Shown one piece after another: positions 25,303 to 61,620 of a stretch of 64,000 bases of DNA. The stretch comes from Candidatus Thorarchaeota archaeon (GTDB lineage Archaea; Asgardarchaeota; Thorarchaeia; Thorarchaeales; Thorarchaeaceae): positions 62,613-126,612 of the forward strand of contig JAWOEX010000022.1 in NCBI GenBank assembly GCA_046482545.1, written 5' to 3'. How positions within the stretch are numbered: position 1 is the first letter of the stretch; every line of letters starts with the position of its first letter. The notes beneath the pieces were generated by a model. It searched no databases and was not told the origin of the DNA. It saw only the letters and a program-made list of their open reading frames with translations. The position numbers were made by a program, and so were the translations under genes.

Positions 25303-25613
25303 GGACTAGTATAACCCGCTTCTTACAGTTCAGCAAACTCAACCTGTTTGAATCTTCTATGTTCCACCCTGCCCCTGCCAGCCTCACCGCCCCTTTCGGC
25401 CCTTCAGTTGGCAGAGGTTTTGTCCATGTTTATCCCAATGGGTTCTTCGCACGGTCTAGGCTTTGTCTGCTTATCATCATCCCGGGTCAACACTCCCGGT
25501 GAGAGGAAATCCTTCCACAGTTCTTACCCCTGCGGGGTCATAATCATCTGACCCAGCTTTGTCACCGCCGCCGAGAAGGTTCATTTGGACATGGAGCTTC
25601 GCCGCACCAGTCC
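25303..25613 (-). ncRNA. Orphan copy of the tnpB 3'/omegaRNA-like region (non-autonomous element or trans-acting scaffold)
   Basis: Colinear with 61301-61600: 62/93 identities without gaps in the 5' block and 35/39 in the GGCGGTGA...GGGTGGAACA.AGAAG block; no adjacent tnpB. Confidence 0.7.
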
Positions 25614-25842
25614 GGAATCAATGACTTAGGATGACTTCTCCAATAGATGAAGAAAATATCATTTTGCTATGATGATTTCTTATTTGAGAAGATAGATGAC
25701 ACCAATCTTTCCCAGAATGAATTCAAATACTCAATCTTGATTATTCAAGGCTTTTCTTGGTTCAGAAAAATTGTAGGGCTTCAGGGAGATTTCACAAAGG
25801 TTTTACATCTTGACATGCTGATTTTTTAGGATTTTGTAAGAT

Positions 25843-26475
25843 TCAGCGCGCCCAGAATCCACCCTCTTCTTCCTCTTCCTCGGTTTCTTCTGGTTCTGCT
25901 TTTTCAACAAGCTTGGCGAAGTCTGCATGAACTCTTATCGGGATTGTATGTGGGCTATCAAGCAATTCTAGAATAAGTTCTCCTTTTGCTGATTCTACTC
26001 TCACTACCTTAGCCCGTTCCCCCTTGAACGCTCCAGAAATAATCTCAACAAGGTCCCCTACTGAAATTCCTTCTGCAGCAGGTGGGGGTACAAGGAACTT
26101 GTCAATTTCTTCCAATGTTACCTTTCCACCGACACGCCCTCGTACGTGGGGAATCCCCTGAATTGCCAATTCTACATCTCTGAACTCCATTGTTTCAAGG
26201 AAAATATAACCCCTCAGAGTGCCCGGAACTAGAACCGCTTTAACCCGTCCTTGTAGTTTATTCTCTGACACCAGCTTAGGAGTGCTTTCTCCTTCCGCCT
26301 GGTCGCATTCCTGTATATGCTCTCCTGCCTCTTTCTTTGAATCAAATTCCCTTTTGCAGAATGGGCATACCCAGATATCCTTTGCACTGGTTACGGCAGT
26401 AGTGATTAGATCCGCAACACTCTTCTCCTGCCCAATTGTAGTTCGTACTGCGTAGATATTGCCAGTGGACTGCAT
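25843..26475 (-). CDS. spt5: Transcription elongation factor Spt5 (NusG) with inserted C2HC zinc finger
   Basis: IYAVRTTIGQE, LRGYIFLE, KOW GDLVEIISGAFKGE; start at MQSTG after GGAGG. Confidence 0.93.
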   Translation of the reverse strand: MQSTGNIYAVRTTIGQEKSVADLITTAVTSAKDIWVCPFCKREFDSKKEAGEHIQECDQAEGESTPKLVSENKLQGRVKAVLVPGTLRGYIFLETMEFRDVELAIQGIPHVRGRVGGKVTLEEIDKFLVPPPAAEGISVGDLVEIISGAFKGERAKVVRVESAKGELILELLDSPHTIPIRVHADFAKLVEKAEPEETEEEEEEGGFWAR

Positions 26476-26519
26476 ATACAAAACCTCCAAGGTTGGTGGA
26501 TTAATACCTCTTAGTCGGA

Positions 26520-26696
26520 TTATTGCCAGTTTTGAGTTACGATTGCCATCAAGGTTTGGATTATGAAGGCTAAGAAACCTACGAGAACCATGGCTAGCAG
26601 ACTGATTCTCGCACTCAACCACATTTCGTCCTTAGATGGCTTCGTAGATAGCTTCAAGATTCGTCGCGCTTCACGAATGAAATCTGCTATACCCAT
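26520..26696 (-). CDS. secE: Protein translocase SecE/Sec61-gamma (58 aa, absent from ORF track)
   Basis: MGIADFIREARRILKLSTKPSKDE followed by a TM helix; canonical ftsZ-secE-spt5 position. Confidence 0.92.
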   Translation of the reverse strand: MGIADFIREARRILKLSTKPSKDEMWLSARISLLAMVLVGFLAFIIQTLMAIVTQNWQ

Positions 26697-26796
26697 CTTT
26701 ATTCACGTCGCTGTTAGCAATTACCTCTCGGTCGGTGACCTTCATCGTTGCCAATCAAGATTCTCTTTTAATGCTTTCTGAGTATACAGTACGAGG

Positions 26797-27939
26797 TTAC
26801 TCTATTCTTGGAAGGTCTAAGTCACCTTTCAGGTCTTCAGCTAGCGGCGTTACTGGTTCAGAACGTGAATTAATAATCCATGGAGATTTGACGCCAGAGG
26901 CGATTACGGTGACTCGCAGCTTATTCTCCATTTCAGGCTGGATAAGCGCACCATAGATAACTTCAGCATTTGGATTAACCTGCTCAGTTATCAGTTCCAC
27001 AACATGTTTTGCTTCCTGTAGCTGGAGATCGGTACTTCCACTCACATTGATCAGTATATTTCTTGCATTCTCTATTGACACATCTATCAATGGATTGCGC
27101 AATGCATTGAAGACGGCTTCGTCTGCTCTATCTTCTCCTTCGCCTTCACCTAAAGCGATTATCGAGACTCCTCCATTCTTCATGGTTGTGCGAACATCAG
27201 CGAAATCGAGGTTGACAAGCCCGGGCCTAGATATGAGCTCAGCTATCCCTTTCACCGCCCTAACAAGAATCTCATCAGCAACCATGAACGCCTCAGGTAA
27301 TGACAAATCAGGTGCAATCTCCAAAAGCTTCTCGTTTGGTATTGCTATCAGGGTGTCTACATGTTCCATTAGATCATTGAGTCCGCGTTGGGCATTCTTC
27401 TTTCGTGTTCTTCCTTCTACTTCAAAGGGCAAACATACAATGGCGACAGTTAATGCTCCGTTTTCTTTCGCAGCTTTAGCAATATGAGGAGCTGCACCCG
27501 TTCCAGTCCCGCCACCCATGCCCGCAGTTATGAAAACTAAATCCCCGCCAATGACCTCCTGCATTACATCATATGTTTCAACAGCGGCTGCCTCACCTAG
27601 ATCGGGATCATTTCCTGCACCCAACCCTCCGCAGGTTTCCTTTCCTAATAGTAGCTTGTGATGGGAATTTGAGAAGTAAAGGTCTTGGGCATCTGTGTTA
27701 ACGGCCATAGTCTCAGCCCCTTCCACTCCTACTTCCATCAATCTAGTGACTGCATTGTTGCCTGCTCCACCAACACCAACTACGAGAATTCTTGCACTGG
27801 CTGTTTCGAGTAATTCTGCAAGCTCATCGTCACTGGTGGAAGATTGAACATGTGTTCTCTTGCCCCTCGTTCTTCTAGGGTCTTCGCTATTCGGCGATTC
27901 GTTTAAAACTCCTTCAACAAGCGGATGCATCAATGTCAC
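26797..27939 (-). CDS. ftsZ: Cell division protein FtsZ
   Basis: [29 protein letters not shown]. Confidence 0.97.
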
Positions 27940-28031
27940 CTATTTCGGACTGTTAATATCCAGATGTCATTGAAACAAAAACCAGAATATTCTCCGGGTA
28001 TTATACCCATGTGACCAGTTCCATCTACAAA

Positions 28032-28967
28032 TTATCTGAAAGTTCGTAGAATTGAATCCATGTTGATTCCATACTGAGAAAGCAGTTCGTATGTCTGTTT
28101 CAGGGTTGGTCCATTCTGTGCACCAGGTTCCTTGATTGTCAATGCAGCTACTGCATTGCCCATGTGTAAAGCCAGTTCGATATCCTCAGATCTGGTCCAA
28201 GCCGTTATGAATCCCGCTGCAAACGAGTCTCCAGCACCGAGCGTATCTGTTACTGAGACTTCAAATGCTCTTGAGCTATAGATATCGAATCCGTCTGTCG
28301 CCATTGTACCATCTTTCCCTCGTTTGAGTATGACTATACCCGGCAGCTCCTTGCCAAGCTTCTTGAGATTTGTTTCTGTGAGTTCCACATTGAAGTATCT
28401 ACTGAGCTCCTCATCATTCAGAAAAAGAAGATCTACATACGGCAAGACAGTCGAGAAATCAATATTCCCGGCTTCACGTCCGGGGTCTAATGATAGCACA
28501 ATTCCTTCTGAAGTCGCTATTCTGGCGGCCTCCGATATGATATTTGGAAAACCACCAGCAATGTGAATAGTCCTAGCAGTTGCAACCTTTTTCCTTTTTA
28601 GGGTGATTTCTTCGAGATGTTGGTTGGCCCCTGCTTCTGCAATTACAAAGCTTGCTTGTTTATCCTTTCTTACAAGAAAAAAGAGACCAGTGGATTGACC
28701 CGCAATGGACTGAACCATGCTAGTGTCAACCCCGTTCTCAGAGATTGTCTTGACTGCATCTCGGCCGTAGAAATCATCTCCAACGCATGCAATTAGTTTG
28801 GTCTTCACTCCCAGACGAGCAGAGTGCACCGCGAAGTTCGCAGCTGACCCCCCAATAGATACACTGCTGGACTTCGCCATCGTATGCTGTGCATCTTTTG
28901 GGAGCTCGTCGATATCCATCATGAGGTCAATATTGACCCGGCCAATGGATACAGTCTCTACACCCAA
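28032..28967 (-). CDS. PfkB-family carbohydrate/nucleoside kinase
   Basis: GGSAAN, DTLGAGDSF. Confidence 0.9.
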   Translation of the reverse strand: MGVETVSIGRVNIDLMMDIDELPKDAQHTMAKSSSVSIGGSAANFAVHSARLGVKTKLIACVGDDFYGRDAVKTISENGVDTSMVQSIAGQSTGLFFLVRKDKQASFVIAEAGANQHLEEITLKRKKVATARTIHIAGGFPNIISEAARIATSEGIVLSLDPGREAGNIDFSTVLPYVDLLFLNDEELSRYFNVELTETNLKKLGKELPGIVILKRGKDGTMATDGFDIYSSRAFEVSVTDTLGAGDSFAAGFITAWTRSEDIELALHMGNAVAALTIKEPGAQNGPTLKQTYELLSQYGINMDSILRTFR

Positions 28968-28979
28968 ATATCCCGCCTC

Positions 28980-29903
28980 TCACATCAACAATGCGAGAAT
29001 CGCTTTCTGAGCGTGCAGTCGGTTTTCTGCTTGATCGAAAACAACAGAGTGTGGTCCATCCATTACCTCACTTGTGATTTCTTCCTCACGATGGGCTGGC
29101 AAGCAATGCATAACAATCACGTCTGGCTTAGCATGACTCACCAAATCCTTATTGATCTGGAATGGCATCAGTCTCTCTGTTTCTTCCTTCGTTCTATCCT
29201 CCCCCATGCTAAAGAAGGTATCAGTATAGATGATATCAGCGTCCTTTACCGCCTCAACAGGGTCATTGACAATCTTAAGATCTGTACCATGTTTCTCGCT
29301 GAGCTCCTCTGCTCGCTTCATTATCTCTTTTTCTGGGGTATGACCCTTGGGGGATCCGATGGTAACGTCCATTCCCATAATGGTACAGCCCTGCATGATG
29401 GAATTACTGACGTTATTCGAATCGCCAACATACGTAATCTTCAACCCTTCCAGCTCGCCTTTGTTCTCTTCTATTGTGAACAAATCGGCAGTAATTTGGC
29501 ATGGGTGAAGGAAGTCAGTCAGACCGTTTATCACGGGAACCGTGCTATGCTCGGCAAGTCCTGTAATCTCGCTGTGTGCGTATACACGGGCCATAATACC
29601 TTCACAATATCTGCTCAGCACTTTTGCTGTATCACCAATTGTCTCCCCGCGTGCTAGCTGTGTTCCACTCTTGCCCAGATATAGGGCGTGGCCACCGAGC
29701 TGAGTCATGCCCACTTCGAACGAAGTGCGAGTGCGCGTACTTGACTTCATAAAAACCATCGCGAGACTAGATCCCTTAAGAATCGGATGGGGCTCTCCTT
29801 TCTTGAGCTTCTCTTTCAATTCATAGCTCTTGTCGAGTATTTTTCTAAGATCGTTTCGCTGCCAGTTGTACAAATCAACAAAATGTCTTCCTTTCAGACT
29901 CAC
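28980..29903 (-). CDS. argF: Ornithine carbamoyltransferase
   Basis: STRTR, HPCQ, SMG, HCLP, AENR. Confidence 0.95.
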   Translation of the reverse strand: MSLKGRHFVDLYNWQRNDLRKILDKSYELKEKLKKGEPHPILKGSSLAMVFMKSSTRTRTSFEVGMTQLGGHALYLGKSGTQLARGETIGDTAKVLSRYCEGIMARVYAHSEITGLAEHSTVPVINGLTDFLHPCQITADLFTIEENKGELEGLKITYVGDSNNVSNSIMQGCTIMGMDVTIGSPKGHTPEKEIMKRAEELSEKHGTDLKIVNDPVEAVKDADIIYTDTFFSMGEDRTKEETERLMPFQINKDLVSHAKPDVIVMHCLPAHREEEITSEVMDGPHSVVFDQAENRLHAQKAILALLM

Positions 29904-30013
29904 GGTTATTCCCTCTAAACTAAATGCGTCTAACCGAAATGAATTCTCAAGAATAAATAAACATGTTCACATCGTCATTTTCTGTTCTCTTCATCAGAAA
30001 GATGAGTGTCTTG

Positions 30014-30220
30014 ATAACCCGTTTCATACAGTTCAGCAAACTGCGTGAAACTTCTGTGTCCATCCTTCCTCTGCCAAGGTCGCCGATTTCAAGGCTATCC
30101 AATACGCCCTTGAGTTAGCAGGGGCTTTGTCTGTGTTCGCTGGAATAGGATACCTCTTACAATCCGGGTTTCCTTCCACTGTCATCGGGAGTGTTGACCC
30201 GGGATGACGATGGGGGAAGG
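30014..30220 (-). ncRNA. Second, partial orphan omegaRNA-like copy with an inverted internal hairpin
   Basis: 3' end is 27/29 identical to the 25.3-kb copy (AGTTTGCTGAACTGTA.GAA.CGGGTTAT); another block 26/33; a shared 22-mer is present in the opposite orientation. Confidence 0.65.
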
Positions 30221-30232
30221 TAGTGTCATTTG

Positions 30233-31138
30233 TTAACCTACAAGTCTCTCAGCAAACCATTCCGGATTGAATTTCCTGAGGTCTTTGTATCCCTGCCCAA
30301 TACCGACATATACGATTGGTTTCCCGGTAATGTATGTAATGGATAATGCGGCACCCCCGGAGGGATCAGCATCAATCTTTGTTAGAATAGCTCCATCAAT
30401 TCCGATGGCCTTGTGGAACTCCTTAGCCTGGGATGCTGCATCATTTCCTGCAAGGGCATCACCCACAAAAAGTTTCAAATCTGGTTCTGAAACTCTTGCT
30501 ATCTTTTTCATCTCTTCAAGCAGGTTCTTGTTGCTCTGCATTCGCCCCGCAGTATCTATCAATACCACATCAAGACCTTTTGCTTTGGCATGTGCAACGG
30601 CGTCATATGCAATGGCTGCAGCGTCACTTCCATAATCCTGCTTTATCACTCTCACACCTAGTCGATCAGCATGCCGTTGGAGTTGTTCTATGCTGCCAGC
30701 ACGAAATGTGTCGGCTGCTGCAATAACAACGGAGAAATCATAACCTTTGAAGACGTGAGCCATTTTTGCTAATGTTGTTGTTTTGCCTGTGCCATTCACA
30801 CCAACGAAAAGAATTGTTGTGCTTTCTCCCTGCTCCTTGCGTTCTTTTGCGAATTCTAAGATGTCCAATGGCTCCTCAGGTTCAAGTACTTCAAGAACAG
30901 AATCATAAACCGCTTTCTGAAATAGCTTGGTAAGATTCTCGAGTCTTCCAGTTCTTTTGCCCAGTAATTTTTGTTTTGTTAACTCACATATACGTTCAGC
31001 AACTTCCACCGCAACATCATTCTGTATAAGTACTAGCTGCAATTCCCAAACCACATCAGAGAGATTCTCCTCATTCAGTTCTCTTGTGGTGGCCTTGGTA
31101 ACTGCAGTATCAATTGCGCTGCGGAGATTGTCAAACAA
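30233..31138 (-). CDS. ftsY: SRP receptor FtsY
   Basis: GVNGTGKTT, DTFRAG, DTAGR, TKID, GIGQ; TTG start at MFDNL. Confidence 0.95.
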   Translation of the reverse strand: MFDNLRSAIDTAVTKATTRELNEENLSDVVWELQLVLIQNDVAVEVAERICELTKQKLLGKRTGRLENLTKLFQKAVYDSVLEVLEPEEPLDILEFAKERKEQGESTTILFVGVNGTGKTTTLAKMAHVFKGYDFSVVIAAADTFRAGSIEQLQRHADRLGVRVIKQDYGSDAAAIAYDAVAHAKAKGLDVVLIDTAGRMQSNKNLLEEMKKIARVSEPDLKLFVGDALAGNDAASQAKEFHKAIGIDGAILTKIDADPSGGAALSITYITGKPIVYVGIGQGYKDLRKFNPEWFAERLVG

Positions 31139-31142
31139 ACAT

Positions 31143-31577
31143 CTATTCCTCCAGTTGCTGCATCTGAGCAACCAGTTGTCGAATCTGAACGTTGAGTGCC
31201 TCTGCCTGTGTGACTAGCTTCTCATATTGAGCGGATAGGGAACCAGCTCGCTCTTCCAATTGGGACAATGAATCTTCTACCGATGCCTTTGCTTCTTGGG
31301 CATCTTGCTCTATTCGAACACCGCTTCCGACATCACGTATTACAGTTTCAGCATCCAGCAAGCGAGCTCTTACAAATATGTTCCCTCCTATGTTCATCAA
31401 CATATCCTCGCCAGCATCCTTGTCTTCAATCTTCTTGAGGACTTCAAGACCCGCTCTGTAGTTCTGTAGATACGCCTGAAGCAGCTCTATACGCTCTTGT
31501 AGTGCATTGGCGTTCGACTCGGCCATTTGCTGTTGGGCATATAGCTGTTGCAGTTGTTCTTGCTTTTCTTGACTCAT
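31143..31577 (-). CDS. pfdA: Prefoldin alpha subunit
   Basis: Coiled coil, IGGNIFV, DVGSG; operon position. Confidence 0.9.
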   Translation of the reverse strand: MSQEKQEQLQQLYAQQQMAESNANALQERIELLQAYLQNYRAGLEVLKKIEDKDAGEDMLMNIGGNIFVRARLLDAETVIRDVGSGVRIEQDAQEAKASVEDSLSQLEERAGSLSAQYEKLVTQAEALNVQIRQLVAQMQQLEE

Positions 31578-31828
31578 TCGAATTCACTCTCGATTCCTAG
31601 TATCCTACGAATCTCCAGATCGGTGACTTCTTCAGATTCTATCTCTTCTATTTCCGCAAATTCGATGTTTCTTCTTTTCACCCTGTGTCGGCTACCCACC
31701 TCGGAGAGAATTTTCTCCTCTACGTGAGACGGTTTTGGGGCTATCACTTCTTTCTCAAAGCGAAATGTCCTGCCTTTCTTGTTGTATTTTCCTTTTGCAC
31801 GCCAAATTTTCGGACTCATTAGAATCAC
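31574..31828 (-). CDS. rpl18a: Ribosomal protein eL20 (L18Ae/LX)
   Basis: FEKEV, SEVGSRHRVKRRNI. Confidence 0.9.
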   Translation of the reverse strand: MILMSPKIWRAKGKYNKKGRTFRFEKEVIAPKPSHVEEKILSEVGSRHRVKRRNIEFAEIEEIESEEVTDLEIRRILGIESEFE

Positions 31829-31839
31829 CTTGTTCTATG

Positions 31840-32505
31840 CTATACGAAACCTAATACCTGACTCAAATGAGCCAGTTCGACACCAGTTGTATCAGAGCCT
31901 GTAATCATGCCGTCAGAGTTAGCTACTACACCTAGACTGGTATAAGGGCTCCCTCTGTTTACCGTCGCTACTTCAACATGCACTTTTAATATCTCGGATA
32001 TTTGCTGAATCTCTGATTCTGTGGCCAGCGGGTGTGTCACCGCCCCAACATTCGTTGCGGTAGTGGTAGCTCCAACTATGGGAAGACCAGCAGTTTTTCC
32101 TGCTACTACTTCCACATCCAGCACATCTTCCATTCTTTTTCTTGTTGAATCATGAAACTGAGGGTGACAAAGTGCACCCTTGTCATTACAGAGAATGACA
32201 TTACCCAAAGCTGTAATCTTGCTGTCAATCCATTCCACAGGAAGGTCTGTAGCCTCTCTGATTGTCTGCATCTCTTCGTCTGTAATAGTATAGGGAACCA
32301 GAATACCAGACGAATTCGCAGCTGTTACGAGCCCAACAGCGTCAATCGTGGCTACAGTTGACTGAATTAGTGGTAAGTTGAAAATACGCTCAATGGCATC
32401 CATTGACTTGGGCGACATATTTGGTGATGTGAAGACCATTCTGTCTGTGCTTATTCCAAAAGCACCGACGTTAGGATCGCCCTCAAAATTTAGCCGGGCG
32501 ATCAT
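31840..32505 (-). CDS. eif6: Translation initiation/anti-association factor aIF-6
   Basis: ALGNVILCNDKGA, TVNRG, ANSDG, TTGVE. Confidence 0.95.
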   Translation of the reverse strand: MIARLNFEGDPNVGAFGISTDRMVFTSPNMSPKSMDAIERIFNLPLIQSTVATIDAVGLVTAANSSGILVPYTITDEEMQTIREATDLPVEWIDSKITALGNVILCNDKGALCHPQFHDSTRKRMEDVLDVEVVAGKTAGLPIVGATTTATNVGAVTHPLATESEIQQISEILKVHVEVATVNRGSPYTSLGVVANSDGMITGSDTTGVELAHLSQVLGFV

Positions 32506-32511
32506 CTTGGA

Positions 32512-33018
32512 CTACCCCTCTGCAAGATACACTCGAACAAGATTCTCCGCATCTTTCGTTGCTCTAATTCTGACTTTTCTAGGCGGTTTCTCAATCCCAC
32601 GAGACCAAATCTTCTGGTTCACTTCTTGTTCAATGAGCAGGAATTCAGGCTTCATGTGCCGTTCAACAAACTGTTTGACTTCCTTGACTGCTCTATTTGC
32701 TCTCTTTCGTTTGCTACCGCTCCAGTACACTTTCCGCAAGGGAACAGTATAGATTCGCTCATCAATGATTTCTTCTTCCGGAAGTACTTCTTCCGTTGGT
32801 TCGAGCTCTTCTTCTATCTCGCCCTCAATCTCTTCAACTGGGGCCTCAATATCTTCGAGCCCTTTAATCTCGTCGAGGTCACCCATCTCTTCGTCTTCTA
32901 GGTCAAGACCTTCGATTTCTTCTAGCTCTTCATCTTCCAGCTCTTCTAATTCTTCTGCTTGGTCAGTTTCAGGTTCTTCTGGAACTTCATCTCCTGAAGT
33001 CTCTTCCGGTGGACTCAA
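32512..33018 (-). CDS. rpl31e: Ribosomal protein eL31 with long acidic N-terminal extension
   Basis: ERIYTVPL, RANRA, IWSRGIEKPP. Confidence 0.93.
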   Translation of the reverse strand: MSPPEETSGDEVPEEPETDQAEELEELEDEELEEIEGLDLEDEEMGDLDEIKGLEDIEAPVEEIEGEIEEELEPTEEVLPEEEIIDERIYTVPLRKVYWSGSKRKRANRAVKEVKQFVERHMKPEFLLIEQEVNQKIWSRGIEKPPRKVRIRATKDAENLVRVYLAEG

Positions 33019-33033
33019 TATCTACAACTCCTG

Positions 33034-33189
33034 TTACGGTTTCAGTTTAGTCCGTCGCCAATTCCGTTGAGCGGGTGTCCTTCGCACTTTTCCGTCCGTC
33101 TTAAGGACTACCCACGTAGGAACTGAGCTATTGGACTTCATTGCTTTTGCCATTCTCAGTTTCTTTCCAAGCGGTTTGTTTCTCGCCAT
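33034..33189 (-). CDS. rpl39e: Ribosomal protein eL39 (51 aa, absent from ORF track)
   Basis: [31 protein letters not shown]...RNWRRTKLK. Confidence 0.95.
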
Positions 33190-33212
33190 TCTGAAGCACC
33201 TTGATTATCATT

Positions 33213-33551
33213 TTATCTGAATTTGATTTTTCTCTCTCTTCCCTTGCCTTGGAGCTGTTTGAGAAGTGATTTGAGCTTCTCGTCGTCGATTCTGCCTTTC
33301 AGACGACCTGAGCTCGCAATCTGAATCAACTGCATTTCAATCTGCTCTGCAAATTGAGGCTTGACCAGTTTGATATTGGAGAGTCGTTCTCTTGCTTTCG
33401 GAGTGAGAATCTGTCTTAGGATTGCTTGTTTCTTTGCTTCAGCTTCAGCCATCTGTTCTTCGCGTGCCTGATCCTGTGCAGCTCGCTCCTTTAGAGCATT
33501 GAGTTTTTTCTGCCTAATTTCCTCAAGCTCATCATCACTCATTGTTTTCAC
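33213..33551 (-). CDS. PDCD5/TFAR19-family DNA-binding protein
   Basis: [25 protein letters not shown]. Confidence 0.92.
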
Positions 33552-33573
33552 CTTATATATGATTCATAAAAGA

Positions 33574-34026
33574 TTAGTAGTTCTCTAGTTCTGGAATTGC
33601 CTTTTCCAATTCCTTCTTCATGACCGACGATAGTTTGTCCAAGTAAGAATGACCCATACTGGTCACTACTCGTCCTTCTCCTTTCTTCGTCTTAATGAAA
33701 CCTGCTTCCTCAAGCTGCTGGAGCACATTCCTAATGATTGAACCACTACCTTTCCTGAACTTGTTAGGTCTGCTGCCATTTCTTTTCTTCCCGCCAAAGT
33801 GGATTCTTAGTTTTTCCGTGCCTATAGGCCCTTCAAGGTAGACTTTCCGCAGTACAGCCGCACATCGCGTATACCACCAATCTGAGTCATCTGGAGCTCT
33901 CTCCTTGTGTACCCCTGTCTTGACATAGTATGACCAATCAGGAGGGGCAATCTCATCTTTGGACTTAAGTTCCTCAGATAGTCTGTCTATGAGGACATTG
34001 GCGGGAATATCGTATACTGTAGGCAT
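33574..34026 (-). CDS. rps19e: Ribosomal protein eS19
   Basis: MPTVYD, VKTGVHKE, WWYTR, GSGSIIR. Confidence 0.95.
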   Translation of the reverse strand: MPTVYDIPANVLIDRLSEELKSKDEIAPPDWSYYVKTGVHKERAPDDSDWWYTRCAAVLRKVYLEGPIGTEKLRIHFGGKKRNGSRPNKFRKGSGSIIRNVLQQLEEAGFIKTKKGEGRVVTSMGHSYLDKLSSVMKKELEKAIPELENY

Positions 34027-34127
34027 TTTTCTTTCTCCATTTGATTTGAGGGGCACCGCATCCTAGCTGGGACGATGGGCTAACTCAAAAGCCTGAAATC
34101 GCAACCCTAGAGTGCAAATAAAAGCTT

Positions 34128-34415: not shown

Positions 34416-34439
34416 ATAATCAGGCTTCCTGTGCCCTGA

Positions 34440-53266: not shown

Positions 53267-53279
53267 GTGAAAGAAACTG

Positions 53280-53491
53280 ACCAAGACCTAGTTCTCCAAT
53301 TGTGGCGTACAGAATCACGAATCGGCGGTTGCCATCCCCATCCTTGTTGTATCGGAATCTCCCTGATTACCACATGGCAAAAGCTTCGCCAGTGGCTCAT
53401 CACCAACGTTTCCCTGGCTATCCCCTTCGTAGGTGGCGTCTATGACCAAGTCTGCGTCCTCCAACTCGTCGAAGCCGAATCTCCGCCCCAT
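53280..53491 (-). pseudogene. AspBHI/MspJI-like modification-dependent restriction enzyme N-terminal fragment, copy 1
   Basis: MGRRFGFDELEDADLVIDATYEG...DEPLAKLLPCGNQG, then a 1-nt frameshift into (G)FRY; truncated. Confidence 0.65.
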
Positions 53492-53583
53492 CCTTGTTAT
53501 ATTCCTTTGGTACTGATTCTTCTACATTCTAAGCATAAAGGGGTTCATTTGTTTTTCCTTCTTGGGTTCTACTGAAATGCGTG

Positions 53584-53634
53584 ATAGCGGTCTTCCACTG
53601 AACTGTCACTGGGATTCACTGATGGCAGTAGGGG
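53584..53634. repeat. TTCCACTG...CAGT(G/A)G hairpin, same family as the 61.7-62.1 kb array
   Basis: Minus strand TTCAGTGGAAGACCGCTAT versus TTCAGTGGAAGGCCGCTAT at 62071. Confidence 0.6.
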
Positions 53635-53849
53635 CCCGAACCACCGCAGGCTTTTGAACTTCTCATACTGCGCAATGTGTCAGCAAATCAAGCCTCGTGT
53701 TCTTTGAGCCTGACTAAGAAAGGTCGTCTTAGCCCTTATTCGGCTCTTGCTGGCTGCGAGTGCATGATAGGAGCCTTCCTAAAGGGGGAATATTTCGGAT
53801 ATGCTGTGGTTTAAGAAAGCGTAGTTCTTTTTTGGATTTGAATTACTGA

Positions 53850-54833
53850 GTGAATTCTGGAGGGCTAAAATTGCTTGGTTATGAGGAGCTAAAGGAAAAC
53901 ATTGAACGCACTGATACAACAGTTGAATGTCCAGTTAAGGGATGCAGTGAAAGAGTGGTAAGACAAAGAGATACCTTTAGGAAAAAGAAAAGATTCCAGT
54001 GTTCAATACATAAAATCTACATTTCCCCATCAACCTTTGAATATCCAAGTGAACTAGATAACCTTCTTTGGAAAACTGACGAAGATTTAGAACTACTCAA
54101 TAGAATAAGTCAGGAGAAACGAGAACGCCGAATGCCTCGAGAACGTAGTGAAGACGCTGTCAGTTGGAATGTCTTTAGATTTCTCGAAAAGAATAATCTT
54201 GTTGAGGGATTCTTGGCATCGATAGCCAGGAAATCACTGAAATCATCTGATGTAATCTATTGGTCATACAGCCAAAAGGAAGATTCAGACTGGTCACTCC
54301 TGAACAGAGCAAGAAGGGAGTTTGGAGAGAGATTATCCAGGAGTTCAGAGCCAGATATCATCATTGTGACCGAGAATTCACTCTTCTTCATTGAAACTAA
54401 GCTAACTGCTAGAAATAGGACAGTTCCCAGTAATCCCCGGGCTTACAAGAAATATGAAACTGGTGGCAACAATTGGTTTTCAAATGTGTTTGAATCAGAC
54501 TACAAGACAGTCGCGATAGTTGAGAAGAAGTACGAACTATTGCGTTTCTGGTTACTTGGAACATGGATAGCAGAACAGATGGATGTGGATTTCTATCTCG
54601 CCAATCTGGTGAGATCTGGACGAGAACGAACTATTGAATCGATCTTCAAGAAGCATATCAAAGAAAATCAACAAAGACAATTTCTGCGAGCAACATGGGA
54701 GTCTATCTACGATTATATATCGAAGAGCGGTCAATCTAAGGATAAAGAGAAAATGCTGAGATACTTCAGGAACAAAACCGTTGGTTATGATCATAATGGG
54801 AAGTTACAGAAGGCATTCACAATAACCAGATAA
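53850..54833 (+). CDS. PD-(D/E)xK restriction-like nuclease with N-terminal Zn ribbon
   Basis: CPVKGC...CSIH; SEDAVSWNVF; SEPDIII...FIETKL. Confidence 0.75.
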   Translation: MNSGGLKLLGYEELKENIERTDTTVECPVKGCSERVVRQRDTFRKKKRFQCSIHKIYISPSTFEYPSELDNLLWKTDEDLELLNRISQEKRERRMPRERSEDAVSWNVFRFLEKNNLVEGFLASIARKSLKSSDVIYWSYSQKEDSDWSLLNRARREFGERLSRSSEPDIIIVTENSLFFIETKLTARNRTVPSNPRAYKKYETGGNNWFSNVFESDYKTVAIVEKKYELLRFWLLGTWIAEQMDVDFYLANLVRSGRERTIESIFKKHIKENQQRQFLRATWESIYDYISKSGQSKDKEKMLRYFRNKTVGYDHNGKLQKAFTITR

Positions 54834-54930
54834 AGCACAATCATTCTCATCCCTTGCTATCTATAATTCTATACCATCTTTGGAAAGTAGAAGATTCAGC
54901 CCTTCTAATGAGAATTCGTTGTATGCCTTG

Positions 54931-57900
54931 TCATATCCCTAATTCATCAAGAAGTCTGCCTAGTTTTTCAAGGTACTCTTCTATGTTTACGATTTCGAAT
55001 TCGGAGACATCACCATAATCTATATCCTCCTCAATTCCTTCCATGAATGACTGTCGATGTGTATCTTTGCTAACTGTATAGCTGTAAGTGTAGAACGTTC
55101 TCTTATCACCCTGAGCTCTTCGAACTGTCTCCGTGAATGTCTCTCCGTTCCTCGAAACCAGTAGTTCTACCTTGATTTTATCATCTGTGAATCCCAACGC
55201 TTTCAGATATCTTCGCAGTCTCGCTCTAAGAAGTTCAGGTTCTTCAATTTCTGTCAAAGGTATTTCTGTAGTAATACTGTCCAGTATTCTTTCTACTTCA
55301 TCAGAAAGGTGGTTGGTGTAGTCAAGCTCGATTGTATATGAGGTGTTTTTCCATTTCTCTCCGGTGAGGTTTGAATGTGCACTCCAAGCCGGGTAGGCTT
55401 CCAGGAGAGAGAATTCAATATTCCACTTATGGTGCGCTGAGCGAAGATATGTTCCGGGCAGCAGCGTTCGTGATCTATAACCTGACTGTGCCAGCACTTT
55501 CGCAATAAGTGGGCTTTCTCTGAGAACCATCTGGGGGTACTTCTGTAGCGAGCCCTTAACCTCCAGTTCTAAGGGATATTGATTCTCACCAACAATCATT
55601 TTCTTTGGCCCGAGCGTTAGGAGTATCTGCCGATCATTCAGTGCCCCATCAAGAATATCTTGGAGGGGTTTGTTTGCATTATCTGAATCAATACGCCAGC
55701 AATGTCCATGATTATGCCCATTCCCTTGTGCGATTGGACACAGCTCTTGGTCATGTTCTATCGTTACTGTTACAGGACTGTTATCAGGCAGCGAAGTCAG
55801 CATCGAGAGTGTTGCTGGCAAACGGATAGAGGAGTCCATCGGGATATAGGTCTCAGCAACTATAGCCGCAAGGGATAGTTCTCCATAGTCGATGTCTGTG
55901 AACCTGTTCCAGAATAACGCATGCTCAGCATCAATCTTGACAGGTAGCCCATGCCGTGACAGTCTGAGCGTATTTGTGAGAGCGGCAGTTGATGTATGAT
56001 CTACAGAAGCCACAACTTCATCGGAGTCGAGAAAGCTGACAGTACATACATCATCATCCCAATTAAGGCGAAGCTGTACATCAGAGCACTGCTCCACCAT
56101 GCTAAGCAACGTCCCAAAGGCAATAGAAACATCTTCAGAGAAACCATCCGGAATAACGTCGCCTTCAGGTATGGATGGTTTCGACACTTCCGCGGATTCT
56201 ATTCTCAGACCCCGAAGCACTCCCATCAGTCCAACTTGGCCCCCTCGAATGAAATCGACTATTCCCAGATACTGCCAATTAGCGCCTTCATAATCACTTT
56301 GCCAACCATGAGTGCATTCATTGATGCTTCTGAAAACCAAGTTTCTTCTAGGCGCATTATTGACCATCTCGTGCAGAGTCTCAACATAACTAGATACATC
56401 AGTCAACGCCCATAAGTCGGGGCTACTGGCCATTCTGTGTCGGATACGAAATACCCCTACAAGTAGCCGGGATGGCTTTCGGGGATCATTCACCGCAATT
56501 AGAGAATAGGGGGTGTCAGGGGTCGTTGGTTCTAACACTTGACCGAATAGCACTTTTTCTTCATCTTCCGCTGTTCTTGGGCTTGCGGATTCATCTGACA
56601 TACGTTCTTCCGTCTTGGTGCTTTGTGTGCTTCGATACATTCTTTGTGCATTGATGCGCTTCGTAGTCATTTCAACATACGATTGGCCGTTTCTTGAAGG
56701 TGGACACCTGAACTTGAATCGATCAAGCAATGATAAACGAGACCTGCTCATATACGGTACATCTCGTGAGATTATCGAGAAATCTGAGCTTCGTCCAGAG
56801 TTTTCTTCGTTGATACTGTTCAGGACTTCACCCACTAGTTGTTTCTTCCCTTTAAATGGCAGAATAGTACGTGGCCAAAGATCTGCTAACCACGGCAATA
56901 GCGTGAGAGCTAATGTTTTCATCCTCTTTCGCATGTCTAAATCAGGAACAGCTTCTTGTGCAGATGAGGACGGCTCAATCGTGCCTTTGTCGTACTCCTC
57001 AGTTCTGAACTTCGCGGACCACCTAAGCAGAGGAGGAATATGTGTCAAATTGATACCAAAGCCGGCTGAATTCTGGTTGATGATGATTCTGATATCATCA
57101 TACATGGGGGCTTTAGCAATATTCCGCAGACCCCAGCACTTGGGGTCAAGGGCCATTCGTGGAGCACATGGAAGATTCCAAACAATATCCGTGATTGCTC
57201 CTTTCAGTAGTGAATCATCATAGAAAGGGAGGATACAATTAGTGGAGTAGGGTACAGCCCTTTGAGCATAGGTGACTGCAGAAGTGAACCAGAGAATAGT
57301 TGTATTCTCTTCGTCCGGAATCCTCTTGAGGATGCGTGAAAGCAACAAGTCAAGCCGCTTACGATAGACAGAGGGTGTCGCTTCCCTGAGCCCGTTCCAT
57401 CCGCTAACAACTACCAAGCGTGGAGTCGACCTGTCTCTATCGATAGGGATTTCAATCTCGCTTGGTTGAGCACCCTCAAAAATGGCTCTATGAACTGTTT
57501 TGAATAGGCCTTCGAAGTTTATCTTCTTAATTGTGTCTTGAATGGTTTCCTGCTGGTCGAAGTATTCATCATGACACCTGACTCTAAGACGCCGCTTTGC
57601 AAATGGTGAAGATGTGAAAGAATCGATGAGATCCAACCATACGATTTCCGTTTCGGGTCTATCTTCACACAGCTGGTGGATGACTTTCATCCCATGGTAG
57701 TAACTAGCGATTCTAGCCGCCGATTTTCCCGATGATGTGGGAGAACGTGATGATACGTACAATATGAATCTTCGACTATTGAATTCAGAACCATACAGTG
57801 GGTCGTATGGTGGTTGCCATTCCTGAGGAATCGGTGTTCCTTCGTATCCAATTGCTCCAGATTGTTCATGCACCACAAGACCCATGCGTGGAATGTGATG

Positions 57901-59532
57901 CTCACTCTTCGCTTCGAAGATTTTGCGTTCCACTCCTCTATGGGTTTCGAGAAGTGTTTCTAACGACTCAAGAATCAGCGGTTTCACCATAGCTCGGGTG
58001 TTGGCACTATCGACAGATGGATCGATAATCAACGTAGCTTGTACAACATCAGGCGGATCTTCCAAGCAAGCGGCCTTTCCGAATGCCTTACTTAGTGCTT
58101 TCGCATATACATTCAATTGACCTTTGGTCTGATTGCTTGGTGTGGCTTCACTAATCCGTTTCCATTCGCTATTGCCCAAAGGACGAGTCTTGATACTGAA
58201 CGTGGGGACAGTACGAAGAACCTGTCCACGTCTTTCTCGTGAATTGGAAGGGCGCGTTTCACTGCCAAGATACCAATTGAATCCTGAATGTGTCTTAATC
58301 TCGATGACCATTAGAGGCCGCCAGAGACACCGAAGACCGGTGGGAGCGGCCTCCCGACGAAACACCACAATATCTGCTCGCCCTCTCCCCTTATCTGTGT
58401 TCAGGGGTAATTCAGCTACGATCCTGTATGGTTCATCAGCCTGGTCTCGGTCATCTTCGTAAATTGCCCTTGTCACACGATAGAACTTGTCGAAAAGGCT
58501 AGTGATTCTGTCATGGATGATCGAGCCGATCCTCTTTGCTCGGTCGCTGGCCTTCTCCCAGATATGCTGTACATCAGCTGCAGTCAGACATGGAGCTGGG
58601 TTACCCTCTTCGTCTTTCTCCACTTGGGAGCCGCCCTCCATAATCCGTTCAAGTTCATTGGTGGCAGCATTCAACACCCCCGCTTCTCTGGCTTCTTCGA
58701 GCTGTTGTTTGAAGAAGGTCATTGAGAAGGTAGGCTCGGGAGCAGTGAAATGAGATGAGACGGTTTGTTCTTCGCCAGACCGTACGTGGAAATGTTTCCG
58801 GATATCCGCCTTGATTTCGCTCAGGACCTTGACTGTACCATTCCTGAATCCTTGCTTACCGTATGCGTGCTCAGTGTACATGCGATCAAGATATGGGCGT
58901 GCATGCAATAGAAACAGATTGCTATATCTGCGAGTGTCTCTGACCGGGACATCGTGGATGTAGCACTCAGTATTCAAGACTTGCATGTGCATCCGGCATG
59001 CGTCTACGAAGTCGAGCTCAGGAAGCATCTTATGGACAGGCTTGTAGCATGGAGTTCTCGAATCACCAGGGTATCCGTAACCGGATAGCTCGCCTTCTTC
59101 ATCAACGAAATCCTGCGCTTTGCCCGTCGGATAGTCCAGCACGCCGCACTCTCGCAAGGCCGCTCCCCCTGCATTCAACCTCTGATTCCACGGACCCACA
59201 TCTTCGTACCAGCGCTTGGCGCGCACCGTCTCTGTACAACCATAGGCTGCTGCGCGTTCAGCCAAAATAGCAAGCCCGTTCTTGCCGATGTTATGTTCTG
59301 CCTTCAGTACCCAGTCGAAATCAGGCCGACCCAGTGCATTGGATAGGTAGTAGGCTTCCTTGTACCTGGATAGGATGTCGCGGGAGCTTTCGTAGAGGTG
59401 TGTGCCGTTGCTGTTTGCAACCGCTCGTTGCAGGTACACCGCTGTGGACAGGCCCGTTTTTCTCGCTTCCACCAGCACTCGGTTTGGATGCTTGGGTAAT
59501 GGCTTGCTTTTTGGCCCCCGCGTTCCTGTCAA
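54931..59532 (-). CDS. 1533-aa multidomain protein with RecB/Cas4-like PD-(D/E)xK nuclease and degenerate P-loop
   Basis: GSIIH, AELPL, GRADIV, IEIKT, QLNVY; SPTSSGKS. Confidence 0.7.
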   Translation of the reverse strand: MTGTRGPKSKPLPKHPNRVLVEARKTGLSTAVYLQRAVANSNGTHLYESSRDILSRYKEAYYLSNALGRPDFDWVLKAEHNIGKNGLAILAERAAAYGCTETVRAKRWYEDVGPWNQRLNAGGAALRECGVLDYPTGKAQDFVDEEGELSGYGYPGDSRTPCYKPVHKMLPELDFVDACRMHMQVLNTECYIHDVPVRDTRRYSNLFLLHARPYLDRMYTEHAYGKQGFRNGTVKVLSEIKADIRKHFHVRSGEEQTVSSHFTAPEPTFSMTFFKQQLEEAREAGVLNAATNELERIMEGGSQVEKDEEGNPAPCLTAADVQHIWEKASDRAKRIGSIIHDRITSLFDKFYRVTRAIYEDDRDQADEPYRIVAELPLNTDKGRGRADIVVFRREAAPTGLRCLWRPLMVIEIKTHSGFNWYLGSETRPSNSRERRGQVLRTVPTFSIKTRPLGNSEWKRISEATPSNQTKGQLNVYAKALSKAFGKAACLEDPPDVVQATLIIDPSVDSANTRAMVKPLILESLETLLETHRGVERKIFEAKSEHHIPRMGLVVHEQSGAIGYEGTPIPQEWQPPYDPLYGSEFNSRRFILYVSSRSPTSSGKSAARIASYYHGMKVIHQLCEDRPETEIVWLDLIDSFTSSPFAKRRLRVRCHDEYFDQQETIQDTIKKINFEGLFKTVHRAIFEGAQPSEIEIPIDRDRSTPRLVVVSGWNGLREATPSVYRKRLDLLLSRILKRIPDEENTTILWFTSAVTYAQRAVPYSTNCILPFYDDSLLKGAITDIVWNLPCAPRMALDPKCWGLRNIAKAPMYDDIRIIINQNSAGFGINLTHIPPLLRWSAKFRTEEYDKGTIEPSSSAQEAVPDLDMRKRMKTLALTLLPWLADLWPRTILPFKGKKQLVGEVLNSINEENSGRSSDFSIISRDVPYMSRSRLSLLDRFKFRCPPSRNGQSYVEMTTKRINAQRMYRSTQSTKTEERMSDESASPRTAEDEEKVLFGQVLEPTTPDTPYSLIAVNDPRKPSRLLVGVFRIRHRMASSPDLWALTDVSSYVETLHEMVNNAPRRNLVFRSINECTHGWQSDYEGANWQYLGIVDFIRGGQVGLMGVLRGLRIESAEVSKPSIPEGDVIPDGFSEDVSIAFGTLLSMVEQCSDVQLRLNWDDDVCTVSFLDSDEVVASVDHTSTAALTNTLRLSRHGLPVKIDAEHALFWNRFTDIDYGELSLAAIVAETYIPMDSSIRLPATLSMLTSLPDNSPVTVTIEHDQELCPIAQGNGHNHGHCWRIDSDNANKPLQDILDGALNDRQILLTLGPKKMIVGENQYPLELEVKGSLQKYPQMVLRESPLIAKVLAQSGYRSRTLLPGTYLRSAHHKWNIEFSLLEAYPAWSAHSNLTGEKWKNTSYTIELDYTNHLSDEVERILDSITTEIPLTEIEEPELLRARLRRYLKALGFTDDKIKVELLVSRNGETFTETVRRAQGDKRTFYTYSYTVSKDTHRQSFMEGIEEDIDYGDVSEFEIVNIEEYLEKLGRLLDELGI

Positions 59533-59674
59533 TCGTTCACGCCCTCTGGATTCCTAAAACCGTGTACTCTAATGTGACCATATCAAACTACTATTTGTGC
59601 TTTTCTGTTGCATCTTTATTGGTTTAGAAGTGTTCTAGGCTAATTCAATTAATCGTTTGATAAAATTGCTTCAT

Positions 59675-59784
59675 GACTTTAAATAACCGAACCAGTACTC
59701 TGGTATGAGTTCATTACCTCGGGTCTAAACGAAGAGGCGAGTGAACTCTACTGACCGGCATAGGTCAGGACTTTAAATACCGAA
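59675..59784 (+). promoter_or_regulatory. Tandem TATA-containing direct repeats flanking two hairpins (candidate left end or small RNA)
   Basis: GACTTTAAATA(A)CCGAA at 59675 and 59769; hairpins at 59707-59748 and 59751-59768. Confidence 0.55.
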
Positions 59785-59794
59785 GGCGTTTCCC

Positions 59795-61477
59795 ATGGAA
59801 AGCTCTGATTCCCCGGTGATTACGGTCAAAATCCCTATAGCGTGGGAAGAAATGACTAGCAACAGTCGCAAGCGGCTGGAGCAGATCACGGGGAGGGATT
59901 CTCGAGTGATTCATGCTTTTTTTGGTGTGATTGAAGAACACGAAGAAGATTTGCTGAGGGGGAAAGCGAAGAATCGGATAGATGAGAACAAGTTGCATGC
60001 GATGACCATGACTGCACTGAGGGTGTTTGATGGTCAAGAACCCAGACTGGATGTCCCACATGATTTCAAAGAACAATTTCCTCGTATATCGGCTAACGAG
60101 CTGTCGGAATGTCGGCGTGTGGCTGTTGCCAACTACGAGAGCTATCTGGCCCTGCGAGCAAAGAAGTGGAGAAAAGCTTCGCGTCCTGCCGAGACCAACA
60201 GCGAGAGACGCATACCTCGACGGATATTCATGCCGTACAGGGCCAAGCTGATGGAACATGACACAACAATCTCCCGTTTGTGGCTGGACATTCGCGATTC
60301 TCTTGATTCAGTACCTGAAGAACGACGTGTACATGACAGGCTCCGTATTCCTCTAAAGACCTCGCCGTTCCATCTGGAAGAGCTGGGGCGAGGAAAGCCA
60401 AAGAGCGCGCAGCTATTCACCGACCGGCATGGCAAGTGGTGGACTGCTATCGCTGTCCGTCTTACTGAAGTTGAAACGAGAGACGATGCTGACTTGCCGC
60501 CTGCTGTTCTTGGAATCGATTTAGGTATCAACTGTGCGGCTTGTACAACTTTGCTTACCGAGCACAAGGTATCGAAGACCCGCTATTTCAAGCAGGATGA
60601 AAAGTATCAGGCGTTTCTACGGTATGACAGACGCGTGGCGGATCTTCAGCACGACCTAGATACGAGAAGAAGCAATGGAAAGAACTGCGATGGGTTGATT
60701 CGCTGTCTCAAGGAGCTCAAAACCAAACGAGAAGACTGTGCCAAGATGCATGACAAGTTCCTGGTAAGCAAGTTGCTCTCGTATATCGAGGAACTAGGCG
60801 AGCAGTATCAGCTGTATATCGGCATCGGGAGGCTCAAGGGCATCCGCAACTCAGCCCGCAAGGGCAATTACAAAGGTTCTAGGTTCAGGGGTATGGTGCA
60901 CAGGTGGAGCTTCTCGCGCATCACGAAATCGCTTCGGCACGGGCTGACCCAGCTCGGGTGGGAAGTGGAAGGCAAGGATAGCCGATTCCATGCGGTACCC
61001 GAGAACTGGACCTCAATCATGTGCTGGAAGTGTGGCAACAAGGGAGTACGGCCGAAACAGGCTTTGTTCGTGTGCCACACGTGCAGCTTCCGCACTAATG
61101 CCGATCGCAATGGCTCCCTGAATATCGCACGTCGTTTACTTACGCTCATTCCTTCACTTAAGGATGAGACTGGACTAGGGCGGTGGGCCACCCCCGAACG
61201 GGGGAACGGCTCAGCCCCGAAAGCTGTGAGGCGGACCCGTTCCGCTAAGCAGAAGTCCTCACTCTCCCGCAACGGCAACTCATCAGGCCGGGGAGAGTCC
61301 GCGGCTGTTCGCTTTGTCCAATTGGACCTGTCCAGCTTTGGTGACGAGGCTAGGCAGAGCGATGATGACCCCGCCGTGGCAAAAGCTGTGGAAAACCTCG
61401 CTGCCCCCAGGCGTGATGTGCCCGGGCGTGGGCAGGAGACAGAAGCCGAGACCGCAGGAGGGACCGTGTCCTCATGA
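59795..61477 (+). CDS. tnpB: TnpB/Cas12f-like RNA-guided endonuclease with rearranged RuvC
   Basis: RuvC-I GIDLG, IGIGRL with G at the canonical E position, VPENWTS alternative E, CWKC/CHTC Zn finger, NADRNGSLNIA. Confidence 0.9.
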   Translation: MESSDSPVITVKIPIAWEEMTSNSRKRLEQITGRDSRVIHAFFGVIEEHEEDLLRGKAKNRIDENKLHAMTMTALRVFDGQEPRLDVPHDFKEQFPRISANELSECRRVAVANYESYLALRAKKWRKASRPAETNSERRIPRRIFMPYRAKLMEHDTTISRLWLDIRDSLDSVPEERRVHDRLRIPLKTSPFHLEELGRGKPKSAQLFTDRHGKWWTAIAVRLTEVETRDDADLPPAVLGIDLGINCAACTTLLTEHKVSKTRYFKQDEKYQAFLRYDRRVADLQHDLDTRRSNGKNCDGLIRCLKELKTKREDCAKMHDKFLVSKLLSYIEELGEQYQLYIGIGRLKGIRNSARKGNYKGSRFRGMVHRWSFSRITKSLRHGLTQLGWEVEGKDSRFHAVPENWTSIMCWKCGNKGVRPKQALFVCHTCSFRTNADRNGSLNIARRLLTLIPSLKDETGLGRWATPERGNGSAPKAVRRTRSAKQKSSLSRNGNSSGRGESAAVRFVQLDLSSFGDEARQSDDDPAVAKAVENLAAPRRDVPGRGQETEAETAGGTVSS

Positions 61478-61620
61478 TAGCGGTCAAAGCCCGTGCTTGG
61501 CCGGGGGTGGCGCCTCGGTTTGGCGGTGACGCTGGGCAGGGGAAGGGTGGAACACAGAAGTCCGTGAAGTCGGTTCACTCACTTCAACGGGAATGGCAAC
61601 TAGTGGTAGAAACAATGGTG
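61301..61620 (+). ncRNA. Putative omegaRNA/reRNA scaffold and guide overlapping the tnpB 3' end
   Basis: GC-rich, conserved in two orphan copies, terminal hairpin GAAGT-CC-GTGAA-GTCGG-TTCAC-TC-ACTTC; expected position for TnpB guide RNAs. Confidence 0.6.

Follow-up and report, generated by a model that had tools for sequence, protein, structure and literature searches.

Protein-less derivatives of IS200/IS605 elements that retain an omegaRNA and need TnpB in trans are known as PATEs (palindrome-associated transposable elements; Meers et al. 2023, PMC10055086). In Asgard archaea, aCas1-associated TnpB loci (Cas1H-Asgard-1/2) have flanking repeats and a conserved GTTCACTCA downstream of tnpB, according to the consulted part of Altae-Tran et al. 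2023 (PMC10691335). Here we analyze a 64,000-nt stretch of DNA from Candidatus Thorarchaeota archaeon (the window: contig JAWOEX010000022.1 of assembly GCA_046482545.1, positions 62,613-126,612, forward strand; coordinates without a contig name are those of the window), in which a tnpB gene is accompanied by two protein-less "orphan" copies of the sequence spanning its 3' end, near 25 and 30 kb. The orphans are very probably old, damaged insertions of a family of ~590-bp miniature inverted-repeat transposable elements (MITEs) derived from an ~8.3-kb aCas1-TnpB transposon. The association of aCas1 with TnpB was already known, as were protein-less omegaRNA elements needing TnpB in trans, in the form of the IS200/IS605 PATEs; new here is a MITE offshoot of the aCas1-TnpB transposon, with its exact ends, target-site duplication (TSD) and target motif. 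PATEs are also said to go back to Dyall-Smith in 2011, and Asgard aCas1-TnpB loci are reportedly linked to Makarova et al. 2020 as well.

Like PATEs, the MITEs are short and non-autonomous, keep their ends and an omegaRNA, exceed the nuclease genes in number, and would depend on TnpB and a transposase supplied in trans. Unlike PATEs, they have a 6-bp TSD, a short inverted core at their termini and a parent with a Cas1-like gene instead of Y1 TnpA; their omega module of ~420 nt is unusually long, and the flank on the guide side begins with the duplicated target. The likeness to the Cas1H-Asgard loci, as far as these are covered in the consulted part of PMC10691335, includes a tnpB beside a divergent Cas1 homologue, repeats, GTTCACTCA and the replacement of the RuvC-II Glu by Gly. 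MITE derivatives, a TSD and a target motif are unmentioned in that part of the account, and the stretch 5' of GTTCACTCA, in contrast to what is said there, is not hypervariable in this genome but forms the 5' arm of a hairpin, covarying with the 3' arm.

The genome measures 3.05 Mb in 45 contigs, the window being part of contig C23. A full-element hidden Markov model (HMM) of 616 positions, built from copies in this genome and searched by nhmmer, finds 106 matches there, with ~34 complete MITEs of ~590 bp and ~70 fragments; in a nucleotide search the tnpB 3' end recurs ~70 times. The protein-less copies share one sharp 5' junction, equivalent to 61171 in the window and situated directly past the region of tnpB that encodes the RuvC/Zn-finger part; the ~160 nt upstream of this junction are common to them and unrelated to tnpB. 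Each MITE consists of a left end (LE), a ~65-nt stretch with a TATA-like box, a ~420-nt omegaRNA module and a right end (RE). The LE has the core AATCTTACAAAATCC and an internal complement CTGTAAGATTT; the TATA-like TTTATTAGG stands ~30 nt ahead of AGGACTAGG, after which the omega module begins, and the right terminus reads ...CAGTTG-loop-CAACTGTAAGAAAnnGGTTA. The RE tip is GAAAC(A/G)GGTTA, and similarity among copies ceases at its last base. Two parent-type elements of 8.3 kb, on contigs C20 and C28, have the same left and right ends as the MITEs, with the MITE-type LE located 6.4 kb upstream of tnpB, beyond a giant gene encoding a Cas1-like candidate. Short, non-coding, multi-copy, flanked by a TSD and sharing their ends with a longer parent, the protein-less copies have the attributes of MITEs, and they outnumber the parents roughly ten to one. 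Of the other genomes searched, 16 of 24 from the same taxonomic family contain the omega module, as opposed to none of 16 from outside the family; tnpB is present in 25 of 31 family genomes, this one included. Two sister species have 4 and 2 tnpB matches versus at least 20 and at least 19 MITE-type matches; in other genera the homology matches begin at the LE-omega junction, and the copies there may or may not be MITEs.

The hexamers that follow GGTTA and precede the LE agree copy by copy, variable centre included (TCAAGA, TCTAGA, TCTTGA, TCTCGA, TCTGGA, TCAGGA, TCCAGA and TACAGA). By a crude automatic call, left and right hexamers are identical in 12 of 27 pairs, where 2.9 are expected, and none of 20,000 shuffles reaches as many. 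Both 8.3-kb elements also have matching hexamers (TCTGGA/TCTGGA and TCAGGA/TCAGGA). An empty site is available for the MITE at C34:61291-61879, which lies between two copies of TCTAGA; a single CCTAGA, with no element, is found at the corresponding place in G001 (contig C141), one of two same-genus genomes of sister species (G001 and G002) used for synteny. The flanks of 65 right ends have the motif T (94%), C/A (89%), two free positions, G (74%) and A (85%), after which the sequence is random. The duplication length of 6 bp was read by eye from the left/right alignments and the empty site; some copies share 8-12 nt at both sides, and these look like insertions beside older left-end remnants. 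MITEs and parents alike make a 6-bp TSD of the TCNNGA type.

The duplication bears on one of the two readings offered in the original prediction, in which the orphans are remnants of IS200/IS605-type elements; they would then be PATEs moved by the peel-and-paste activity of a Y1 TnpA next to a transposon-adjacent motif (TAM). TnpB is classically borne by IS200/IS605 elements, the right end has a subterminal hairpin, and there is one Y1 (IS200/IS605 TnpA) match in the genome (C24:6161-6457, E 2e-27), but this sole gene is unlinked to the element family. IS200/IS605 elements are not known to make a TSD, and the 6-bp duplication therefore excludes that family: a TSD with matching variable centre is borne out by the permutation test, by the two 8.3-kb elements and by the empty site, in place of the absent TSD and HUH-type Y1 TnpA beside a TAM that define the family. 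The shared left end, moreover, lies far upstream of tnpB, past the Cas1-like gene. We consider an IS200/IS605 origin of the orphans highly improbable. The prediction was right that they are non-autonomous remnants and wrong as to the family, given the TSD and the ends shared with the aCas1-TnpB transposon. From the TSD together with the shared ends we infer a double-strand integrase, plausibly the Cas1-like protein, as the enzyme that inserts MITEs and parents.

The MITE at C34:61291-61879 is well preserved and may interrupt a gene; in G001 the surrounding sequence runs on without a break, as it does in G002 as far as the contig reaches. Nested or adjacent insertions also occur. Two MITEs stand head to head at C20:181311-182448, and at C18:5196-5230 a right end is followed by a TSD and a degenerate left-end start, which suggests that the same target is reused next to existing copies.

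The protein genes of the transposon are represented in the window as follows.

54931-59532, minus strand: giant partner gene, 1533 aa, divergent from tnpB (AlphaFold2 (AF2) fold; paralogue loci)
59795-61477, plus strand: tnpB, 560 aa (Pfam, NCBIfam and PDB sequence matches; AF2 and Foldseek)

The tnpB product matches Pfam PF07282 (TNB domain, E 3.5e-10), NCBIfam guided_TnpB (E 6e-20, under that model's cutoff) and TnpB/Cas12f sequences in PDB, and in Foldseek searches its AF2 model retrieves Cas12f, TnpB and Fanzor2 (E 2e-16 to 2e-10, template modeling score up to 0.65). It thus combines a RuvC-like nuclease fold with a Zn ribbon of the TNB type, as a TnpB should: RuvC-I D242, RuvC-III D437 and the Zn ribbon CxxC...CxxC are all present, and in an alignment D242 and D437 are invariant among the 5 paralogues of the genome and 25 homologues. 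At the canonical RuvC-II position, 5/5 paralogues and the 25 homologues have Gly (G345) in place of Glu, and E403 is invariant. At the sequence level this Gly matches the "rearranged RuvC-II" pattern of TnpB clades, as described in the consulted part of Altae-Tran et al. 2023 (PMC10691335); E403 could be an alternative catalytic Glu. One TnpB, as originally counted, is correct for the window, but the genome has 5 intact tnpB genes plus a few wrecks (tblastn), and the window TnpB shares 57-60% protein identity with the paralogues at C34 and C28a.

By tblastn the genome has 4 giant genes of this kind, one at C20, two at C28 and that of the window, each adjoining a tnpB, so that 4 of the 5 intact tnpB genes have such a partner. 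Those at C20 and C28 encode 1410-1655 aa and are likewise divergent from tnpB; the window protein is 32% and 27% identical to the C20 and C28 paralogues compared. Searches of the giant protein against Pfam, NCBIfam and PDB profiles give no match, and fold search alone is informative. Database relatives of it number 29, all without a protein name; where a source is given, it is a Thorarchaeota metagenome-assembled genome. For an AF2 model of residues 1-345 (predicted local distance difference test score 76.6), the top 12 Foldseek rows are all Cas1, with probabilities of 0.96-1.0. VIA-align superposes it on Cas1 3god_A with Z 12.9, a root mean square deviation of 3.9 and 183 aligned residues, residues 1-235 aligning with the Cas1 catalytic domain, and 27 of the 30 top entries are Cas1 (or casposase). 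E101, H167 and D177 are invariant in the alignment of the giant proteins, in a spacing that we take to resemble the Cas1 triad. By motif alone, the protein also has a PD-(D/E)xK-type site (E374, D387, ExK413) and an HCHC motif (1260-1278). On this structural modeling the N-terminus is a candidate Cas1-like integrase.

Casposons, which carry PolB and make TSDs of ~14-15 bp, are comparable to these elements in their terminal repeats, their TSD and an integrase of the Cas1 fold, the candidate here matching casposase 6opm with Z 11.2. Unlike casposons, the elements make a TSD of 6 bp and have tnpB aboard, and the Cas1 domain forms the N-terminal part of a 1400-1650-aa protein that also has a PD-(D/E)xK motif. 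As judged from the predicted fold of a helical domain, tnpB adjoins a Cas1 homologue, and the GTTCACTCA motif is present in many right ends alongside flanking ends and a TSD, as in the Asgard aCas1-TnpB family. With tnpB beside a Cas1-fold gene, flanking repeats and GTTCACTCA downstream, the parent corresponds to the Asgard aCas1-TnpB transposon of Altae-Tran et al. 2023.

The three copies in the window are the following.

25311-25848, minus strand: degenerate whole MITE in the spt5/rpl11 spacer (nhmmer; empty sites at contig C47 of G001 and contig C43 of G002)
30007-30220, minus strand: MITE right-end fragment plus inverted fold-back in the ftsY/argF spacer (repeat search; nhmmer)
61171-61600, plus strand: omegaRNA module linked to tnpB (nhmmer, HMM positions 176-575)

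The HMM matches 61172-61583(+) with E 4e-113, 25596-25308(-) with E 2.6e-58 and 30186-30007(-) with E 6.8e-39, so that the three similar copies of the original prediction are real, and annotation agrees with the neighbours named for the orphans (rpl11, spt5, an argF-type ornithine transcarbamoylase and ftsY). Direct blastn of the tnpB 3' end against the 25k copy aligns 39 nt at 90% and 80 nt at 74%, and a repeat search returns one direct match (25311-25339 / 30014-30042) and two inverted matches (25354-25379 / 61535-61560 and 25473-25505 / 30179-30211). Conservation past the stop codon (61475-61477), also predicted, continues for ~110 nt, the tnpB-linked module covering this stretch and the last ~100 tnpB codons. 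The extent of both orphans needed correction. The 25k segment, first given as 25311-25605, was too small: the insertion is 538 bp long (25311-25848), its limits being set by a weak left-end match (25860-25770(-), E 4e-7, nhmmer) and by the empty sites in relatives. It comprises an LE core (25770-25848), a diverged, scrambled middle and an omega/right-end module (HMM 311-604 at 25596-25308), terminating in ...GAAGCGGGTTA before a flanking T. The 30k copy, first given as 30014-30220, is partial as stated, but is actually a right-end fragment (HMM 429-608 at 30186-30007) plus a 44-nt inverted fold-back (HMM 400-443 at 30177-30220(+)); its right flank is TCAAGA. The terminal hairpins do keep their pairing despite different sequences, with CAGTT/AACTG-type stems in the orphans and CCG-TGAAGT/ACTTCA-CGG in the tnpB-linked copy, where GTTCACTCA lies within the loop (61573-61581). 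The "CGGG" reported after all three hairpins holds for the orphans, as part of the conserved right-end tip, but this tip has diverged in the tnpB-linked copy.

Both orphans are absent at the syntenic sites in G001 and G002, the check for which the original prediction had called. The rpl11/spt5 flanks are 82-85% identical in these genomes, where they are 26 nt apart versus 538 nt here, and the ftsY/argF spacer measures 53 nt in G002 versus 240 nt here. Both orphans are therefore lineage-specific insertions. They are also decayed: the 25k copy has both sides present for 70 of 126 consensus pairs, with 81% canonical, and the 30k copy keeps 39 pairs, with 82% canonical, versus a mean of 92% and a 5th percentile of 84% in complete copies. 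The orphan modules share 70-77% identity with the modules of the C34/C28a TnpB lineage, versus 61% (25k; 240 HMM-aligned columns) and 59% (30k; 133 columns) with the neighbouring module. By this measure the orphans derive from another TnpB lineage, and their nearness to the window tnpB is coincidental. Beside the right end of the 25k copy, at 25311, 26 nt of ancestral spacer are missing relative to G001 and G002 and the second TSD copy is gone; comparison of the sequences indicates a deletion where guide and target would lie.

An alignment of 42 non-redundant omega modules (mean identity 76%) yields a consensus of 126 pairs, in which, with relatedness uncorrected and the structure scored on the alignment from which it was derived, 92% of cells are canonical versus 36-44% with slid partners. 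Changes on both sides are seen in 40 of the 126 pairs, and G:U cells number 535 versus 165 A:C cells. Alifold gives an energy of -222 on the sense strand and -198 on the antisense strand, with column shuffles at -128 to -144, and the covariation score is 0.221 versus 0.154+-0.003 in 200 permutations. The tnpB-linked module has 89% of its 115 predicted pairs canonical. Canonical pairing, covariation, G:U bias and sense-strand energy together argue that the module is a structured RNA of the sense strand, as expected of an omegaRNA; it also overlaps the 3' end of the gene and stops at the right end of the transposon. Rfam contains no family matching the module, at gathering threshold or at E<=1. 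The RNA-level constraint past the stop codon for which the original prediction argued is thus present at family level, in the covariation and in the sense-strand G:U bias.

These results also bear on whether the similarity might reflect nothing other than protein-coding conservation, the orphans being pseudogene fragments of the tnpB C-terminus. The module does overlap ~100 codons and tblastn finds many fragments, but the frames of many copies are broken (split tblastn high-scoring segment pairs), similarity extends well beyond the stop codon, the copies all have a single sharp junction fused to the left end, and paired columns covary with G:U in excess of A:C. Such an explanation is extremely improbable. 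After insertion, constraint is less apparent. In 16 MITEs with close relatives we counted 45 private substitutions, at a density of 0.115 per paired column and 0.086 per unpaired column; at canonical pairs 22 changes break the pair and 5 keep it, where ~9 would be expected to keep it. Selection seems to act on lineages, with landed copies drifting neutrally.

The second reading of the original prediction treated the orphans as maintained scaffolds, used by the host for defence or regulation through the single nearby TnpB and loaded with different guides in trans, like a CRISPR system without an array. A structured, covarying module, a TATA-like box kept ~30 nt upstream of it in the MITEs and a number of protein-less copies far exceeding that of tnpB all speak for this, and four salt-lake metatranscriptome runs from three studies hold contigs of this organism that touch both loci, in patchy, low cover with no bridging contig and no RNA ends. 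But both loci are empty in the sister species; the copies are truncated and decayed, and cognate to other TnpB lineages; pairing in the MITEs shows no selection after insertion; and the TSD and shared ends mark the copies as insertions. The guide search suggested at the outset also failed to find targets: for each of 65 right ends, the adjoining 30 nt have no second occurrence in the genome, save for chance matches of 15-16 nt, and the two window flanks have no exact 20-mer match in viral contigs. With dispersed single insertions and 65/65 unique flanks, the copies do not resemble a CRISPR-like array. We regard host-maintained guide scaffolds as very unlikely, and the apparent array-less CRISPR resolves to MITE debris, i.e. 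the scars of a selfish element.

For the MITE family and its parent, we propose the following course of events. MITEs and parents insert alike with a 6-bp duplication, and therefore the parent's Cas1-like enzyme would move both, acting on the MITEs in trans; insertion into T-C/A-N-N-G-A with such a duplication is what one would predict of a double-strand integrase, whether of the Cas1 type or another. Spreading lineages would keep a foldable sense-strand omegaRNA, and landed copies would drift neutrally, the window copies having lost a third to two-thirds of the RNA as lineage-specific insertions beside housekeeping genes. The TATA-like box would drive the omega module, so that intact MITEs probably make an omegaRNA from their own promoter, which the TnpB paralogues could load. 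This RNA would be ~420 nt long, start near AGGACUAGG and end 16-25 nt past GGUUA. The guide would be the element's own flank, and the benefit would fall to the element, not to the host. A guide read from the right-end boundary would start with the duplicated TCNNGA, which is a TAM candidate for a compact archaeal nuclease; if it is the TAM, an occupied site would also hold TAM and target, and the rule of self-avoidance must differ from that of IS605.

Use of intact MITE omegaRNAs by TnpB in trans is plausible, and the idea has been proposed before for PATEs. A stronger version, in which intact MITEs form a natural trans-acting guide set with which 4-5 TnpB paralogues re-cut emptied sites or steer aCas1 integration, is a tentative suggestion that we hold to be rather unlikely. 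If it were true, dozens of protein-less elements would share one nuclease, and since the TSD recreates the target motif beside the right end, TAM use and self-avoidance would have to follow another logic than in IS605. The elements resemble Fanzor and IS630-linked TnpB systems in that an RNA-guided nuclease is carried by a TSD-making transposon whose ends are symmetric, Fanzor2 being among the fold matches; unlike them, they have another class of transposase and an archaeal host. What such a nuclease targets in TSD-making transposons is a question shared with Fanzor/TnpB systems, as the consulted part of PMC10691335 puts it. If TnpB serves MITEs in trans, the family would be a natural test of how RNA-guided nucleases work in such transposons, a matter that concerns Fanzors as well. 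The poorly described Asgard transposon, with its candidate Cas1-like integrase and TnpB, can now be given in detail: its ends, a 6-bp TCNNGA TSD, an omegaRNA of ~420 nt and a MITE offshoot.

Several points weigh against our interpretation of the orphans and their parent. The Cas1 call is made from a predicted fold, with a Z of 12.9 that falls in the grey zone for helical domains, and from three invariant residues, and a search for Pfam Cas1 across the genome gave no match. The inverted terminal core, read from sequence, is an imperfect ~9-10 nt (TTYTTACAR). The 25k insertion has no clean TSD (TCTGGG vs TACTAG) and 26 nt are replaced; its history therefore includes a deletion. The test of private substitutions is small, with 45 changes in 16 copies. 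Some transcription of the orphans is possible, as patchy RNA-library contigs touch both. Transposition and excision, finally, are deduced from comparisons of sequences, with no event seen directly.

The aCas1-tnpB copy of the window itself differs from the elements at C20 and C28 in several respects. The full-element HMM found no left end for it, and at nucleotide level nothing corresponds to the block at the syntenic position in either G001 or G002. A NERD-like open reading frame (ORF) occupies 53850-54833 and shows no homology to the 206-aa ORF in the C20 element. On the other side, ~16 nt past the diverged right end of the tnpB copy, lies a tRNA gene:

61616-61690, minus strand: tRNA-Gly(TCC) (Rfam, ARAGORN)

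An inverted repeat of ~260 bp with 80% identity (53326-53584 and 63720-63979) encloses a 10.4-kb block with the NERD-like ORF, the Cas1-like gene, tnpB, tRNA-Gly and an HxlR-like ORF. A third copy of the repeat is located at the start of contig C14, and a window copy at the end of contig C23, which suggests an assembly break at the repeat. Upstream of tnpB, at 59665-59790, a hairpin GAGTTCA...TGAACTC is followed by a right-end-like stretch, ACTCAACT to a GAAACAGGTTA-like sequence. The same arrangement precedes every intact tnpB, also at C20, C28 and C34, just before a TTTAAATA box, and the right-end-like stretch varies together with the right end of that same copy. This stretch may have a regulatory role, or it may represent an internal or ancestral right end.

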